Assembly (NCBI GenBank): GCA_965279645.1
Contig: OZ257254.1
Span: 362,781 to 426,780, forward strand
Source: Rhodoglobus sp.
GTDB taxonomy: Bacteria > Actinomycetota > Actinomycetes > Actinomycetales > Microbacteriaceae
Direction: 5' to 3'
DNA: 64,000 nucleotides
Position numbers and translations under genes: made by a program. Within the stretch, counting starts at the first letter, position 1; each line of letters opens with the position of its first letter. Positions 28,021-51,453 of the stretch are shown here, piece by piece. The notes beneath the pieces are model-generated. The model was not told where the DNA came from. It saw only the letters and a list, made by a program, of their open reading frames with translations, and searched no databases.

Positions 28021-28258
28021 ATGAAACCTGTCACGAGTGCGGCAGAGCTTGAGCAGATCCTGGGGCGGCCCGAGCCGCGGGTCGCGAACAAGGCGCGAAG
28101 CACGCTGCACGCGGTCGACCGGGAGTGGTTGGCGGCGGCATCCCTCGCCTTCATGGCCACGAGCGATGCCGAGGAACCCGGGGCGCGGCGACACCCTGCG
28201 CATCAACGGGCGCGCGACGATCGTGAGCGACGCGCCATTCTTCGACCACGGTCCCTGA
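28021..28258 (+). pseudogene. Decayed pyridoxamine-5'-phosphate-oxidase-like flavoprotein gene (MSMEG_1061 type)
   Basis: Frame 1: MKPVTSAAELEQILGRPEPRVANKARSTLHAVDREWLAAASLAFMATSDA. After a +1 shift: PGRGDTLRINGRATIVSDAPFFD, then a stop inside a repeat. The middle (SPKGD..PGN) and C-terminal parts recalled for the family are absent. Confidence 0.72.
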
Positions 28259-28336
28259 GGTTCTCTACGGTCCCTGAGGTTCTCGAAGGGAACGAGCCAG
28301 TCACGGGCGTTCCCTTCGAGAACCTCAGGGAACGGG
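28248..28336. repeat. REP-like palindromic element, family A, with a partial tandem duplication
   Basis: Perfect 23-bp arms ccctgaggttctcgaagggaacg (28272-28294) and cgttcccttcgagaacctcaggg (28308-28330); 18-bp direct repeat acggtccctgaggttctc at 28248 and 28267. Confidence 0.9.
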
Positions 28337-45868: not shown

Positions 45869-46479
45869 TCGCCCTCGTCCATCGGCGGCATCTGCTGCGT
45901 GAGTTGCTTCGCCCGGTTGGGATGACGCAGCCCAGCGACGAGCATTTGGCCGAGGGCCGTGCGGCGTCCGTCGCCGTGCAGTCGCCCCTCCCACCCGTTG
46001 GCCTGGTGGAAGGCATCGGCCACGTAGAGCATCGTTGACGCCACGAACTTGCGACGCCACGCGGTCGAAACGTACACCTGGTGCACCTGCCCGTCGGCGG
46101 GATACCAGCGCACCGCGCCCGCCTGGTCGCCGTTCGATACACCCGCGGTTGCGAACGTGTAGCGGTTGATGATCGTTCCGGGCGCGAACCGGTCTCCGCC
46201 GAATGCGACGAGATTGGTCGCCGCTGGAGCAGCTTTCGGCTCGTCGACCCAGACGTACCAGAGCGCCGGCGGCGAGGGGATCAGGTAGCTGCCCACAGTC
46301 ACGTGAACGAGCCCGGCGGCAGGTTCCGACACCCGCCACGCGGCCTCGTAGTCGGGCTCATCTCCGCCGTGCTGCAGGGTTCCGTCGGCCGCAGCATCCT
46401 GTCCGAAAGCGCTGACGTTCCACAGCCCCGACGACAACTTTCCCCGGCGGATGTAAAGCGCGTTCCTGGCGGTCTTCAT
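45847..46479 (-). CDS. Hypothetical protein with a GNAT-like C-terminal motif
   Basis: ATG 46479; VHQVYVSTAWRRKFVASTML resembles GNAT motif A. Confidence 0.6.
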   Translation of the reverse strand: MKTARNALYIRRGKLSSGLWNVSAFGQDAAADGTLQHGGDEPDYEAAWRVSEPAAGLVHVTVGSYLIPSPPALWYVWVDEPKAAPAATNLVAFGGDRFAPGTIINRYTFATAGVSNGDQAGAVRWYPADGQVHQVYVSTAWRRKFVASTMLYVADAFHQANGWEGRLHGDGRRTALGQMLVAGLRHPNRAKQLTQQMPPMDEGDYSAADE

Positions 46480-46552
46480 GCTGCTATTGTCGTGCCCACG
46501 GCACATCCGTTCTGCCGTTCCTGACCCGTATCGGGCCATCTCTGGGGGACTC

Positions 46553-47653
46553 TTGAATAAGACGCTTGCCGCCGTAGGCGCTTCCGTGCTTGGTCTGGCC
46601 TCGGCCACCATGGTCGGTGCTCCCGCGCAGGCGGGGTTGCCGACCGCTACCGACCCGTGCACCGACATGAACGCGCAGGTAGACGCAACCGGCAAGATCA
46701 CCACGAACTGGTACCAGAACTGCGTGCCTCAGTACGGCTTGGGCAAGGCCGAGTTCAGCATCGTCGCCGATGAGGATGACCCCACCGTCGAGTTTCCCGA
46801 AGGTTTCGTGTCGCTCGAAGAGCTCGACGCCGACGCCTTCTCGACAACGCTCGACCAGGACGCGATTGATACCTACCTCAGTAGTGACTCCAGCGTTCCG
46901 ACCCTGTCGCCCATCACCCCCGTGGTCTCGTTCCTGAATGACCCCACCGTGCAGCGTTACTACGCGGTCGTTGTCGCTCCCGTCGAGTCGATCGAGTTCG
47001 CCGAGGTTCCGAGCGATGAGGCTGCAGCACAGTGCGGCCTGGGAGTCGTCGACTACAGCGGGCGGTGGCGCGCAACGTTCGGCTCGGTCGACACCACGAT
47101 CACCCAGACGGTTGGTGACGAGATCTGGAGCTACACGGTCGAGGCGCAGCCCGCACCCACCTACTTCTTCGGCACGTTCTCGAGCGGTGAGCTTGTGGGG
47201 GACTGGTGCGTTACCGACGGCACTCACACGATCACCTCCGACAACGCCGACTTCACCACAGGCGATCAGCTCTTCGGTCTCGTCTTCAACAGCCTTCCGG
47301 ATGTCGCGGGCGATGGTGTCTTCGGCAGCCTGGGCACCTTCGCCCCGGTCATCTCCGCAGCGCCTCCCGTCGACCCGCCAGTCGACCCTCCCGTAGATCC
47401 TCCGGTCGACCCTCCCGTGGATCCTCCTGTCGACCCGCCGGTAGATCCGCCTGTAGACCCGCCCGTCGACCCCCCGGTTGATCCCGACCCGCCCGTCATC
47501 GACGACGAGCCGGTTGTGCGGCAGGCACTTCCCAACACAGGCGTGAACATTGCCGAGACCGCGGTTCCGGCCGCGATCGCGGGCGGAGTCATCCTGTTGG
47601 GTGGCGGGCTCATCGCGGGCGCCGCGATCAGGCGTCGCCGCAACCGCGTCTAG
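46553..47653 (+). CDS. Secreted sortase-anchored (LPNTG) surface protein with a (VDPP)n stalk
   Basis: TTG 46553 after GGGGGA; signal peptide ending PAQA; LPNTG followed by a TM helix and an RRRRNRV tail. Confidence 0.85.
   Translation: MNKTLAAVGASVLGLASATMVGAPAQAGLPTATDPCTDMNAQVDATGKITTNWYQNCVPQYGLGKAEFSIVADEDDPTVEFPEGFVSLEELDADAFSTTLDQDAIDTYLSSDSSVPTLSPITPVVSFLNDPTVQRYYAVVVAPVESIEFAEVPSDEAAAQCGLGVVDYSGRWRATFGSVDTTITQTVGDEIWSYTVEAQPAPTYFFGTFSSGELVGDWCVTDGTHTITSDNADFTTGDQLFGLVFNSLPDVAGDGVFGSLGTFAPVISAAPPVDPPVDPPVDPPVDPPVDPPVDPPVDPPVDPPVDPPVDPDPPVIDDEPVVRQALPNTGVNIAETAVPAAIAGGVILLGGGLIAGAAIRRRRNRV
47369..47488 (+). repeat. Coding 12-bp repeat: VDPP x9 plus VDPD
   Basis: Ten units read directly; synonymous codons differ between almost all units. 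Confidence 0.95.
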
Positions 47654-49380
47654 TCGTCGTCAGTCTTGCGATGCCGGGGGATCTCTTCCCCGGTGACCGC
47701 ATCGAGCGCGGTTTGCCCCTCGGGCAGGTTCGACAGGTCGGGCGCTATCACCTCGGGCATGCGGCCTGAGTCGGGCAGGCCGAAGGTGGCCTGACGCCCG
47801 AGTCCCGGCGCAAGCACGAGATCGTCGGACCGCTTGGTGAGCGTTTTGCCCCTGAAGAAGTCGGGCTGGCGGATCGCCCAGATGCCCATGAGCACAGCGC
47901 CGATCACGAGGGCGCCGATTCCCACGACGGCGGTTGCCCCGATCCCGAAGATCGTGATGTTGTTGCCGTCGCTGTCGACGAGCCAATCGGGGGTCGCGAA
48001 CTGCACGAGCCCGTATCCAAACACGGCCGCGAGCATGAGCCCGCCCGCGAGCGGGAAGAGCCCGCGCATGATGAAGTTGCGGAACGACGAGGTGAGCGTT
48101 TTGCGGTAGTACCAGACGCATGCGAAGCCGGTCAGCCCGTAGTAGAACGCGATCATCAGGCCGATGGACCCGATGAGAGCGCTCAGCAGGTCGGGGCTGA
48201 TGAGTGTGAAGATCAGGTAGAAGGCGGCCGAGACGATTCCCATGCCGATGGTCGACCAGGTCGGCGTGAGGAACTTCGGGTGGATGCGCGCGAACTTGGC
48301 CGGCACAGCCTTGTAGACGGCCATCGAGAGGGTGGTGCGCGCGGTCGGCAGAATCGTTGTCTGGGTGGATGCAGAAGCCGAGGTCAGGATCGAGGCGGCG
48401 AGCAACAGCAGGAAGATGTGCCCGATCACGCTGTCACCGAACAGCTCAGGACCAATGGCCGAGAACACGTCATCCGCGTTGCCTTCTGCGCCAAGCCCGA
48501 TGCCCTCGGTGCCGACGCCCGCGAACGAGACGGCGGCGACGGTCACGAGCGTGTACGTCACGAGCAGCAGCACCGTGCTGAGGATGGCGGCACGCCCGGG
48601 CGTCTTGGCCGGGTCATCCGATTCCTCGTTGACGCTCACGGCGGTGTCCCATCCCCAGTAGATGAAGATCGCGGTGAGCATGGCGGGAGCGATGATCGAG
48701 CCGAAGTCGAGGGTGAACGGGTTGAACCAGTCGAGGCTCGGCATGATGGAGTAGCTCTCGGCAGTGCCCGAGTACACGCGCACGAGGGCGAAGACGGCAA
48801 ACAGGATGAGCACGACCACCTCGACACTCAGCAGCACGTACTGCAGCCGGGCCGAGATCTCGATACCGCGGTAGCAGATGTAGGTCATGATCGCGATCCA
48901 GGCGAGGCCGGCCACTGTCGACCACAGGGTGCTGTCGGCGAGTTCCGCGACGCCGGGAACGCCCAGCTGTCCCACGAAGGTAAACGAGTACGAGCCAGCG
49001 ATCTGGGCGAGGTTGGCCATGACGATCACGTCGGCGGCGATGATGCCCCAGCCGCCCATCCACCCGGTGATCGGGCCGAACGCGCGGGATGCCCAGGTGA
49101 ACGTGGTGCCGCAGTCGGGCTCGGCCTTGTTGAGCTCCTGGTAGGCGACCGCGATGAGGTACATGGGAATGAACGCGAGCAGCACGATGCCGGGGGCCTT
49201 CACTCCTGCGAGGAGGGCGCCACCGCTCGCGACGATGAAACCGAGGCTCGCCGCGAGACTGTACGCGGGGGCGGTAGACGCGACGCCCACCACCACGCTC
49301 GAGAGCAGCCCGAGGGCTCCGCCCTTGAGCCCTTTGCCATCTACTGCTCCGCCGCTGGCCTGAGTTACGGGTGTTGACAT
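47650..49380 (-). CDS. APC-family amino acid/polyamine permease
   Basis: VASTAPAYSLAASLG, PDCGTTFTWASRAFG, IYWGWDTA..VNEE; multi-TM. True start is ATG 49380. Confidence 0.92.
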   Translation of the reverse strand: MSTPVTQASGGAVDGKGLKGGALGLLSSVVVGVASTAPAYSLAASLGFIVASGGALLAGVKAPGIVLLAFIPMYLIAVAYQELNKAEPDCGTTFTWASRAFGPITGWMGGWGIIAADVIVMANLAQIAGSYSFTFVGQLGVPGVAELADSTLWSTVAGLAWIAIMTYICYRGIEISARLQYVLLSVEVVVLILFAVFALVRVYSGTAESYSIMPSLDWFNPFTLDFGSIIAPAMLTAIFIYWGWDTAVSVNEESDDPAKTPGRAAILSTVLLLVTYTLVTVAAVSFAGVGTEGIGLGAEGNADDVFSAIGPELFGDSVIGHIFLLLLAASILTSASASTQTTILPTARTTLSMAVYKAVPAKFARIHPKFLTPTWSTIGMGIVSAAFYLIFTLISPDLLSALIGSIGLMIAFYYGLTGFACVWYYRKTLTSSFRNFIMRGLFPLAGGLMLAAVFGYGLVQFATPDWLVDSDGNNITIFGIGATAVVGIGALVIGAVLMGIWAIRQPDFFRGKTLTKRSDDLVLAPGLGRQATFGLPDSGRMPEVIAPDLSNLPEGQTALDAVTGEEIPRHRKTDDD

Positions 49381-49506
49381 GGTTTCCGCCTTCGTTGCCG
49401 TGGCCCCGGAGGGTGCGGTGCCCTGAGGTGTGAGGCTGGAAAATCTACTCCCGCACACGGCCCGAGAACAATGAGTATACCCAACTGACCGCCGTAGGAT
49501 CGGCTC

Positions 49507-50655
49507 ATGACCAAGACAGCGGTGCACTTCGGGGCTGGGAATATTGGGCGTGGCTTCGTCGCGCAGTTTTTGCACGAAAGCGGGTACGAAGTCGTCTTTG
49601 CCGACGTGAGCGAAGAGCTCATTGGTGCCTTGCAGAAACAGCCGAGCTACCTGGTGATCGAGGTCGGCGAAGGAGCCGTCACCAAGATCGTCGACAACTA
49701 CCGCGCGATCAACTCGAAGAGTCACGAGGCCGACGTCATAGCGGCCATCGCATCGGCCGATGTCGTCACGACCGCGGTCGGCGCGCGCATCCTGCAGTTT
49801 GTTGCGCCCGTAATCGCGAAGGGACTTGCGGCTCGTGAGAACAGCGAGCCGCTCGTGGTGATCGCCTGCGAGAACGCGATCGGCGGCACCGACATGCTTG
49901 CTGCTGAGGTGCGCAAGCACGACCCCGCGACGAACGCGATCTTCGCGAACTGTGCGATCGACCGCATCGTGCCCGAGCAGTCGGGTGGGCTGGATGTCAC
50001 GATCGAGTCGTTTTTTGAGTGGGTCGTAGACAAGTCCCCGTTCCCTGAGGCGCTCGAAGGGAGCGGCAAGCAACTGCCCGACATCTACGGCATCACCTGG
50101 GTCGACGACCTCGAGCCATTCATCGAGCGCAAGCTCTTCACCGTCAACACGGCGCACGCAGCGGCGGCCTACCACGGCATCGACCGTGGCTGGGTCTCGA
50201 TTCGTGAGGCGCTCGCGACTCCCGAGCTGCAGGCCGAGATCCGCGCCGTGCTCGCCGAGACCAAAGAACTGCTCGTGGTCAAGCACGGCTTCGATCCCGA
50301 CGAACAGCAGGCCTACATCGAGAAGACGCTCAAGCGCATTTCGAACCCCGCCTTGCCCGACACGTGTGAGCGCGTCGGCCGCGGTCCATTGCGCAAGCTG
50401 TCGCGTCACGAGCGGTTCATTGGTCCCGCGGCAGAGCTCGCCGAGCGCGGCCTTGAGGTGTGGAACCTGCTCAACGCTGTCGGAGCAGCGCTTCGGTTCG
50501 ATGTCGAAGAAGATGCCGAGAGCGTAGAACTGCAGGCGTTGCTCTCGGGCGGGGCGCCGGCGGATGCCCTGGCCGAGACCATCACGGGACTTGAGCCGAG
50601 TCATCCACTCTTCCCGTATGTTGTCGAGGTCATCGAGCTGCGACTGAATCGATGA
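49507..50655 (+). CDS. mtlD: Mannitol-1-phosphate 5-dehydrogenase
   Basis: AVHFGAGNIGRGF, VTTAVG, IACEN, IDRIVP, ERKLFTVNTAHA, RVGRGPLRKLS..ERFIGP. Confidence 0.95.
   Translation: MTKTAVHFGAGNIGRGFVAQFLHESGYEVVFADVSEELIGALQKQPSYLVIEVGEGAVTKIVDNYRAINSKSHEADVIAAIASADVVTTAVGARILQFVAPVIAKGLAARENSEPLVVIACENAIGGTDMLAAEVRKHDPATNAIFANCAIDRIVPEQSGGLDVTIESFFEWVVDKSPFPEALEGSGKQLPDIYGITWVDDLEPFIERKLFTVNTAHAAAAYHGIDRGWVSIREALATPELQAEIRAVLAETKELLVVKHGFDPDEQQAYIEKTLKRISNPALPDTCERVGRGPLRKLSRHERFIGPAAELAERGLEVWNLLNAVGAALRFDVEEDAESVELQALLSGGAPADALAETITGLEPSHPLFPYVVEVIELRLNR
50037..50062 (+). repeat. Family A REP half-site inside mtlD (in frame, PFPEALEG)
   Basis: 24/26 identical to the reverse complement of 28311-28336. 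Confidence 0.85.
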
Positions 50656-51071
50656 CGGCCGACATCGACGACGACTCTGAGGCCCTCGCCTGGGCGGGTG
50701 ACGATCGACTCAACCCCGAGCCACTCAAACGCGCAGACCCCGAGGAGCAGGTTGAGGTCGACGACAGTGCCTCCGACGCCGCCAGGCCCATGCCCGCGCC
50801 GCTTCTCGTCACGTACGGCATCCTCGCCGGGTTTTACCTGATCTACACCGTCGGCTGGGTGATCACCGTGACGCGATCGACCCTGACCCAGGGCGACCTG
50901 CTCGCCGAGATCATGTTCCAGCTGGGGGAGTTTCTCGCGATCGCGAGCCCCGCCATCTGGTTCGGCGCGGTGCTCTACCTCACGCGCGGGCGTCGCCCGG
51001 TCGTGCGACTTCTGCTCTTGCTCGCGGGTCTCGTCGCTACGCTTCCGTGGCCGCTTCTGTTGGGAGTCTGA
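50652..51071 (+). CDS. Hypothetical membrane protein with acidic N-terminus
   Basis: ATGA-coupled to mtlD; about 3 TMs. Confidence 0.75.
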   Translation: MTADIDDDSEALAWAGDDRLNPEPLKRADPEEQVEVDDSASDAARPMPAPLLVTYGILAGFYLIYTVGWVITVTRSTLTQGDLLAEIMFQLGEFLAIASPAIWFGAVLYLTRGRRPVVRLLLLLAGLVATLPWPLLLGV

Positions 51072-51072
51072 G

Positions 51073-51453
51073 ATGACTGACACCACGTTCCCCGAGGCTC
51101 TCGAAGGGAAAAGCCCGAGAAGCTACGGCTTTCTATCCCTCACGATCGCGGCGGCGTTCGGCCTGTTTTTTGCCTACGACCTGTGGGAGGCGGTCTCGAC
51201 CCTCATCGCCCTTCCCCAGTTCTATTCGGCCTTCGGCCTCGACGCCTCCTACATTCCGTGGTGGCTGCTGTGGCTCGGTGTGCTGATTCCCCCCGTGCTG
51301 TACGGGCTGGCGCTGCTGATCGGTCGCAAGCAGGGCGTGCTTGCGCGCACCCTCATCCTTCTCGTGGGTCTCGCGTTGTCGGCGGCACTCAGCCTCAGCG
51401 CGATCGCGCTCGAGCAGGTGCTGCGGCCCGAGTTGATCGCCGTTATCGGTTAG
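51073..51453 (+). CDS. Hypothetical membrane protein
   Basis: About 3 TMs (FAYDLWEAV); starts 1 nt after the previous stop. Confidence 0.75.
   Translation: MTDTTFPEALEGKSPRSYGFLSLTIAAAFGLFFAYDLWEAVSTLIALPQFYSAFGLDASYIPWWLLWLGVLIPPVLYGLALLIGRKQGVLARTLILLVGLALSAALSLSAIALEQVLRPELIAVIG
51086..51110 (+). repeat. Family A REP half-site inside the 51073 gene (in frame, FPEALEG)
   Basis: cgttccccgaggctctcgaagggaa, 23/25 identical to the family A arm. Confidence 0.85.

Follow-up and report, generated by a model that had tools for sequence, protein, structure and literature searches.

Why should two unrelated neighboring proteins share a heptapeptide that is encoded by nearly the same DNA? The question arises from a 64,000-nucleotide stretch (the window; C1:362781-426780) of a complete, 3.08-Mb genome of 65% G+C, in which FPEALEG is read both in MtlD and in a small membrane protein. 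The original prediction attributed the shared peptide to a common DNA source, a repeat that had been inserted in frame in both genes. We consider it highly probable that the copy in the membrane protein is one unit of a dispersed hairpin repeat, lying in frame in a disordered protein tail as a tolerated passenger.

The coding copy and its host gene

The 23-nt unit at 51088-51110 is preceded by a CG flank at 51086-51087, and the two together (CGTTCCCCGAGGCTCTCGAAGGGAA, + strand) lie within the open reading frame (ORF) 51073-51453(+). Seven codons, TTC CCC GAG GCT CTC GAA GGG (51088-51108), are read as residues 6 to 12, giving the peptide context T-FPEALEG-K. The sister copy at 50039-50063(+), in mtlD (gene 49507-50655), is read as P-FPEALEG-S; it lies 1047 bases upstream and shares both strand and phase. 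Sequence, position, strand, frame, and residue numbers had all been described correctly in every detail. A search of the window allowing up to three mismatches returned exactly four matches to the 51086-51110 sequence, itself included, and none are expected in shuffles. The other three are the intergenic arm at 28310-28334(-), which differs at 2 of 25 bases, the mtlD copy, which differs at 3 of 25, and the intergenic arm at 28268-28292(+), with 3 mismatches.

The host gene (51073-51453, + strand) encodes a small membrane protein of 126 aa, function unassigned, with helices at residues 18-53, 63-84, and 89-117. It follows a gene for a 139-aa membrane protein (50652-51071, + strand) whose stop lies 1 nt before the host-gene ATG, and the two genes look translationally coupled. 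The host is a real, conserved protein, with 31 word-indexed homologues and 307 representatives in a profile search at an E value of ≤1e-3. The motifs AYDLWEA, PWWLLW, and LEQVLRPE are invariant in the family, and the gene order (mtlD, then a 130- to 150-aa membrane protein, then the host gene) is kept among relatives. A Pfam scan of the 126-aa product matched no family. The junction of the upstream stop with the ATG, TGAGATGAC, is kept in four of five orthologous loci (L019, L020, L021, and L023), while that of L022 differs, with an overlapping GTGATGAAG. The ATG at 51073 is the sole in-frame start ahead of the conserved first helix, indicating that the tail copy is translated if the gene is. 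A downstream start, which would place the repeat in the 5' untranslated region, was rejected, since no alternative start precedes that helix.

In an AlphaFold model of the host (mean pLDDT, 83), three long helices run from residue 18 on, and residues 1 to 17 are coil with a pLDDT of 47 to 56. Across 179 homologues, the tail ahead of the YD.W motif ranges from 15 to 52 residues, and its sequence also varies. The predicted N-terminal tryptic peptide of the host protein is (M)TDTTFPEALEGK.

A family of hairpin units

The genome was searched for the core TGAGGNNCTCGAAG with at most one mismatch and at least four of six outer pairs. This strict search gave 73 hits genome-wide, compared to 2 to 4 in shuffled genomes, and 57 units at 41 loci among these hits are clear family members. 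Their consensus is CG-TTCCCTGAGGCTCTCGAAGGGAA-C, with the flanking bases conserved as C(-1) in 55 of 57 units, G(0) in 54 of 57, and C(+24) in 45 of 57. The unit folds into an outer stem of 7 to 8 bp and an inner stem of 3 bp (-12.4 kcal/mol; z, -3.05). Stem pair 6-22 is C-G in 33 cases, G-C in 15, and A-U in 1, and it is never unpaired. Double-change cells in the outer stem number 36, against 10 ± 2.6 in shuffles, stem covariation is 0.278 versus 0.129 in shuffles (0/500), and 94% of stem cells are paired, compared to 27 to 61% with the partner column slid, although these covariation figures are inflated by the family filter, which demands at least 4/6 stem pairs. The coding copy matches the consensus at 22 of 23 bases, with one mismatch to TTCCCTGAGGCTCTCGAAGGGAA, and 51086-51110 is thereby confirmed as a unit of this REP-like, non-coding family of hairpin repeats.

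Besides single units there are inverted dimers, which are frequent, neighbors joined tail to tail, and full or partial tandem arrays; a single unit spans 23 to 26 nt and a dimer 44 to 70 nt. The intergenic reference element of the window (28268-28334) is an inverted dimer with a 13-nt spacer between convergent genes, and it folds at -54.4 kcal/mol (z, -8.8). Beside it, at about 28248-28265, lies a truncated third copy, arranged as GGTCCCTGAGGTTCTC-TAC-full unit.

Outside the clearly coding set there are 38 units. By crude gene calls, 16 of these are between co-directional genes, 12 between convergent genes, and 2 between divergent genes, and 8 overlap gene ends. The crude whole-genome gene caller merged a permease with antisense mtlD and was therefore used solely for the flanks of non-coding units. 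It was misled by the mechanically listed 984-aa ORF at 47650-50604(-) of the window, an artifact in which a real amino-acid permease is fused to an open antisense mtlD frame.

The original prediction also held that repeats arrive in local clusters. Gaps shorter than 2 kb between the 41 loci number 6 where 1.06 would be expected (P about 2e-4), and those shorter than 5 kb number 10 where 2.6 would be. There is in addition a broad excess of loci at 2.0 to 2.75 Mb, and the mtlD and tail copies form one close pair. Clustering is thus borne out, but nothing shows that these two copies arrived together; the metagenome contigs that carry mtlD and the tail are unlinked, and the relative timing of the two copies is not readable from them.

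The family has expanded in this genome, where copies within two mismatches number 29, compared to 1 to 7 in 4 of 24 congeners. The family was not found in the remaining 20 of the 24 congeners or in 16 other genera of the order.

Elsewhere in the window, about ten tandem 12-nt repeats (47339-47506, within ORF 46478-47653(+)) encode (PPVD)n in a 391-aa protein, at whose end are a sortase-type LPNTG motif and a tail that is hydrophobic and basic. Judged from its sequence, this is probably a wall-anchored surface protein.

Gain of the unit in the host tail

Only 3 of the 179 family proteins contain PEALEG (P0001, P0002, and P0021). In P0002 (97% identical; metagenome contig L020), the unit takes its consensus TTCCCT version, and metagenome strains of 1.5 to 5% divergence carry the tail copy free of indels. 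The closest other orthologues, P0003 to P0006 (71 to 76% identity), have short or unrelated tails. P0021 (48% identity; L019) carries SPEALEG at residues 10 to 16, at a different offset and between different flanks. This peptide is encoded by GTCCCCCGAGGCCCTCGAAGGGGAC, a compensated TCCCC/GGGGA subtype that is found in our genome too, and 17 of 18 core bases are identical to those of the tail copy, though the proteins are saturated for change. An orthologue alignment of the N terminus had been proposed as a check, and in it FPEALEG is absent save for the 97%-identical strain and this one distant orthologue.

In a tree built from the helical core of the host homologues, P0001 and P0002 grouped with the repeat-free P0003 and P0004 (98/89), and P0021 paired with P0032, which is likewise repeat-free (100/99). 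Two gains or changes of the repeat were required in 200 of 200 bootstrap trees, indicating that FPEALEG is not ancestral and that the same tail gained the unit twice.

These data bear on the alternative that the protein family has FPEALEG by ancestry or convergence, with a likeness to the repeat that is coincidental or was brought about by selection on the peptide. Some orthologue tails do contain acidic motifs that are loosely similar (PVETIEA, NPIEAVV, and ETIES). However, the identity of 22 of 23 bases to a family of 57 copies includes third positions and the rare GAA codon, just 3 of 179 homologues carry the peptide, and zero matches are expected in shuffles. This alternative is effectively refuted, and we give it almost no credence. 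Conservation of the heptapeptide in distant orthologues with divergent codons, which would have spoken for it, was not what we found, as the SPEALEG of P0021 is encoded by the repeat's own DNA and was gained independently. The common DNA source proposed at the outset is upheld by the match to the family consensus and by the rarity of the heptapeptide among the homologues.

Insertion, the process originally proposed, is plausible, but for this hypervariable tail it is inseparable from replacement of a patch, because the nearest repeat-free tails (about 76% identity) are too different to offer a clean empty site.

The unit, which is located just within the coding sequence (+16 to +38 relative to the ATG), might instead form a hairpin in RNA or DNA that tunes translation initiation or coupling to the upstream gene and is kept for its structure rather than its peptide. 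It lies 15 nt past a start codon adjoining the stop of the upstream gene, units also occur in the N-terminal tails of other genes (HemL-like and YdbT-like proteins among them), and the second lineage to gain a unit in the same tail has a stronger stem (-16.3 kcal/mol). Compensatory stem changes are seen even in coding copies, so the hairpin itself could be under selection inside genes. In the copy studied here, however, the stem is degraded. Position 51093 is C (CCT to CCC, a synonymous and private change), whereas it is T in all four related metagenome populations (factory and groundwater contigs). This T>C change breaks one stem pair, the 3' flank is AA, and the hairpin is weakened to -8.9 kcal/mol (z, -0.6), which is no better than shuffles and is not the preferred fold in a 66-nt context. 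The element is also absent from most orthologues, including the closest at 71 to 76% identity. A regulatory hairpin is therefore a very unlikely explanation.

We infer that the tail copy is most likely a tolerated, neutral passenger of the host protein. The unit would have landed in, or overwritten part of, the disordered, hypervariable tail and would since have been translated as residues 6 to 12.

Units inside genes and frame usage

Local coding scores on both flanks together with ORF continuity place about 20 units in frame inside 15 genes, and crude gene models place about 7 further units in N- or C-terminal tails. The translated share of the 57 units is roughly 35 to 47%, which is well below random placement in a roughly 90% coding genome and far above that of the usual REPs. 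An NCBIfam scan of 10 host ORFs matched 8 of them, namely RecG, Nei/Fpg, LysA, a peroxynitrite-isomerase-like protein, AcuI/YhdH, photolyase, MenD, and an FprA-like reductase; a Lys/Ala-rich 187-aa protein and a pirin-like protein were unmatched. The HrpA-like, YdbT-like, and CrtI-like hosts were named from motifs alone. DNA repair and helicase functions seem to be common among the hosts, which echoes reports on REPs from other phyla. Repair and helicase hosts in this genome include RecG, Nei/Fpg, and photolyase by family match and the HrpA-like helicase by motif reading. The hosts in congeners (loci L025 to L036) include three helicase- or repair-like ORFs by motif only (VDEYQDTN, FANSRRLAERL, and the L030 ORF).

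The unit can be read without a stop in five of its six frames, and only forward frame 3 contains a TGA. Every one of the 19 forward coding units (11 internal, 4 terminal, and 4 in congeners) reads (F/S/V)PEALEG(N), and the 21 reverse coding units read PSRASG in 18 cases, SLREPQG in 3, and PFESLRE in none; these are counts of units, not of independent events, and the two frames are linked within a dimer. It had been proposed that only this one stop-free frame is tolerated. The strong bias is real, but the exclusivity is not, as five frames are open and reverse copies are translated. The genome-wide census of frame and orientation, suggested at the same time, does not yield a single frame or orientation.

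Both used frames begin the stem-encoded residues with Pro and end them with Gly-Asn (P....G-N; FPEALEGN forward and FPSRASGN reverse). Our guess is that the bias comes from a filter acting on the peptide, with P....G-N suiting loops. Frame R-a employs the rare codons AGA and TCA, which counts against this account. Two other causes were rejected. One, the phase of chance seeds, fails as a general explanation of the bias: chance forward 8-mers do favor frame a (493:25:300), but reverse 8-mers favor R-c (503) over R-a (78), and the real copies show the opposite. The other, codon usage or GC3, fails because the unused frames F-b and R-c are the richest in GC3.

Loops of MtlD, LysA, and other proteins

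The MtlD orthologues match Pfam Mannitol_dh. In our MtlD, the loop with the unit is 7 residues longer than in eight orthologues with an intact loop (congeners L038 to L043 and metagenome loci L019 and L021), and the 21-nt mtlD segment is missing from metagenome contigs that are 7 to 11% divergent. The L019 mtlD (L019:99-1223), which is of normal length, reads CCGTTCCCTGAGGGC, identical to bases 1 to 13 of the flanked unit, at the place where CCGTTCnnnGGC stands in most congeners. This half-site, CCGTTCCCTGAGG, involves no change in length and, going by the sequence, may be either half-converted or due to chance. At the same loop, the mtlD of G015 (L047/L054; G015:C22:66159-67306) has a different palindromic insertion of 14 nt (...CCGTTCGCGCGCCGCCGTTCAACGGAACACCG...), which splits the protein match into two frames and represents either a pseudogene or an assembly error in the metagenome-assembled genome.

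In LysA, 13 residues that are extra compared to the Mycobacterium tuberculosis LysA structure 1HKV coincide exactly with a dimer in the loop after KDV (C1:1569443-1569486). Among the lysA loci compared (L056 to L070), the loop contains a single family-A unit in G015 (SVPEALEGAAT) and has 5 residues in 11 other congeners; those of G012 and G004 are long, at 11 to 12 residues, with a source not assigned to the repeat. The LysA tree needs at least two changes, with four in the best tree, and the loop after KDV appears to be a hotspot. Relative to congeners, loops with units are longer by 8 residues in the FprA-like protein, by 6 in photolyase, and by 20 in the pirin-like protein. In YhdH, the unit fills a loop of similar length in Escherichia coli YhdH, with a net gain of about 0.

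Mode of copying

We propose that some copying process occasionally lays copies inside genes and that selection would then retain those copies that keep the gene in frame, yield a P....G-N peptide suited to loops, and are sited in permissive regions. A six-frame search of the 3.08-Mb genome for RAYT (PF01797, IS200/IS605-type Y1 transposase) gave 0 hits, with control genomes positive. No target-site duplication of ≥3 nt was found flanking the elements above chance, and only a palindromic CG...CG is shared.

The 5' two-thirds of the unit is found again and again as partial tandem copies, at 28248-28265 of the window, at C1:700341-700381, and in the 2100909 and 2341329 regions. They appear in proteins as TFPEAP-FPEALEGN (in Nei), as FPEATP twice, and as GSLREPA-GSLREPQG. 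This recurrence suggests slippage at the hairpin. Given the lack of a RAYT and of target-site duplications in these searches, net lengths that vary, and the frequency with which partial 5' copies stand in tandem, we lean towards templated or slippage processes as the mode of copying.

A more specific version would have the copies written by templated repair, gene conversion, or template switching during replication, overwriting a patch of loop and sometimes refreshing old copies. The results for transposase and target-site duplication fit this version, as do net lengths that are inconsistent between hosts (MtlD, +7 aa; LysA, +13; YhdH, about 0; pirin-like, +20), the partial 5' copies, and the half-site in the L019 mtlD. 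However, in local alignments the empty orthologue sites resemble the unit no more than other positions of the same genes do (3 of 23 comparisons at <0.05, most at 0.4 to 1.0), and the phase of chance seeds predicts R-c for reverse copies where R-a is observed. Templated writing in this specific form is possible but rather doubtful. The same local alignments led us to reject insertion seeded by microhomology. Resemblances to the unit at empty sites can be picked by eye, such as CGTTC (mtlD), TCGAGGGC (lysA), GAGGTGCTC (fprA-like), and ATCGAA (tail).

Sites that may have been hit repeatedly across lineages are the N-terminal tail of the host (twice), the LysA loop (in 2 to 4 lineages), and the MtlD loop. 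These bear on a stronger proposal, in which the repeat is a non-random, transposase-free hairpin module that is actively copied and repeatedly writes P....G-N loops of 8 to 20 residues at preferred or permissive orthologous sites, with nearly absolute usage of reading frames. If this were true, copying would have a preference for target or phase, or selection would act on the mRNA hairpin, and in either case loops in the Microbacteriaceae would be diversified by a lineage-specific engine. We regard such an active module as improbable.

The preferred reading, a dispersed unit carried as a passenger, is of wider interest in itself. It extends the colonization of genes in frame by REP-like hairpins, best known from Rickettsia, to a high-GC actinobacterium that is free-living, and there it is extensive. 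The genome offers a tractable, culturable setting for repeat spread without a RAYT, for the use of two of five open frames, and for loops and tails that are hit repeatedly. For annotators, FPEALEG(N) or FPSRASG(N) shared by unrelated proteins of this group is repeat derived and does not mark a domain.

Relation to REP, RPE, and MITE elements

Classical REPs are imperfect palindromes of 20 to 40 bp with a 5' GTAG that are extragenic, are paired with a RAYT, and occur in Gammaproteobacteria. Our family resembles REP/REPIN-RAYT systems in its imperfect palindrome, inverted dimers, and stem covariation. In location the picture is mixed: by crude gene calls, 28 of the 38 non-coding units fit the REP pattern, between co-directional or convergent genes, but about 20 internal and about 7 terminal units of the 57 are coding. 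The family differs from these systems in having no GTAG tag, no PF01797 gene, and frequent coding copies. MITEs have terminal inverted repeats, a target-site duplication, and a length of 70 to 300 bp. In contrast, the present elements show no target-site duplication of ≥3 nt and are far below that size range.

Intragenic, in-frame REPs are known among GTAG- and CGTC-tagged repeats, including RPE-4 and RPE-6 of Rickettsia conorii, and many lie in repair genes (PMC3733652). The CGTC-type REPs have no dedicated transposase (PMC3733652; Di Nocera, De Gregorio and Rocco 2013), and their structure comprises an 8- to 9-bp stem starting with two A/T pairs, a 4- to 5-nt loop, and a CCA tail (PMC3733652). 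Like the GTAG and CGTC REPs, the units studied here are short stem-loops in tens of copies that often form head-to-head dimers, and their non-coding members lie mostly between co-directional or convergent genes. As in those repeats, a subset is in frame in known genes, many of them for repair or helicase functions, with units and dimers encoding about 8 to 30 residues. The likeness to CGTC REPs extends to the dedicated transposase, none of which was found in this genome. However, the end motif is CG followed by TT (CGTT), with CGTC in only 3 of 57 units, and the stem of 7 to 8 bp has an 11-nt interior and a single-C tail, although the T-A, T-A start is shared. The translated share is also much larger than in GTAG and CGTC REPs (about 35 to 47%), and reading frames are used with a strict bias. 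Actinobacteria, the phylum to which the present host belongs, are absent from the text of that survey (PMC3733652; term count, 0). Literature searches for Actinobacteria and Microbacteriaceae found no description of the present repeat family.

RPE-1 elements, as summarized in PMC10969869 from Ogata et al. (2000, 2002), are about 100 to 150 bp long and encode a conserved peptide of 30 to 50 residues. They share with our family a palindromic, selfish-looking character, a location in frame in unrelated housekeeping genes at fold-compatible sites, a proportion of copies in ORFs that is close to half, and the addition of a conserved peptide. Fold-compatible siting is seen here in the coil of the N-terminal tail, at the gap in LysA versus 1HKV, and in the longer loops of MtlD and of the FprA-like, pirin-like, and photolyase proteins. 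The differences from RPE-1 are the unit of 23 to 26 nt encoding 8 residues (about 20 in dimers) and the host, which is a free-living, high-GC Microbacteriaceae-like bacterium in contrast to obligate intracellular alphaproteobacteria. The present family behaves like the intragenic REPs and RPEs yet is without their defining sequence features. Given the similar behavior, the differing sequence features, and the lack of a description in the literature searched, we class it as a new addition to the intragenic REP/RPE kind.
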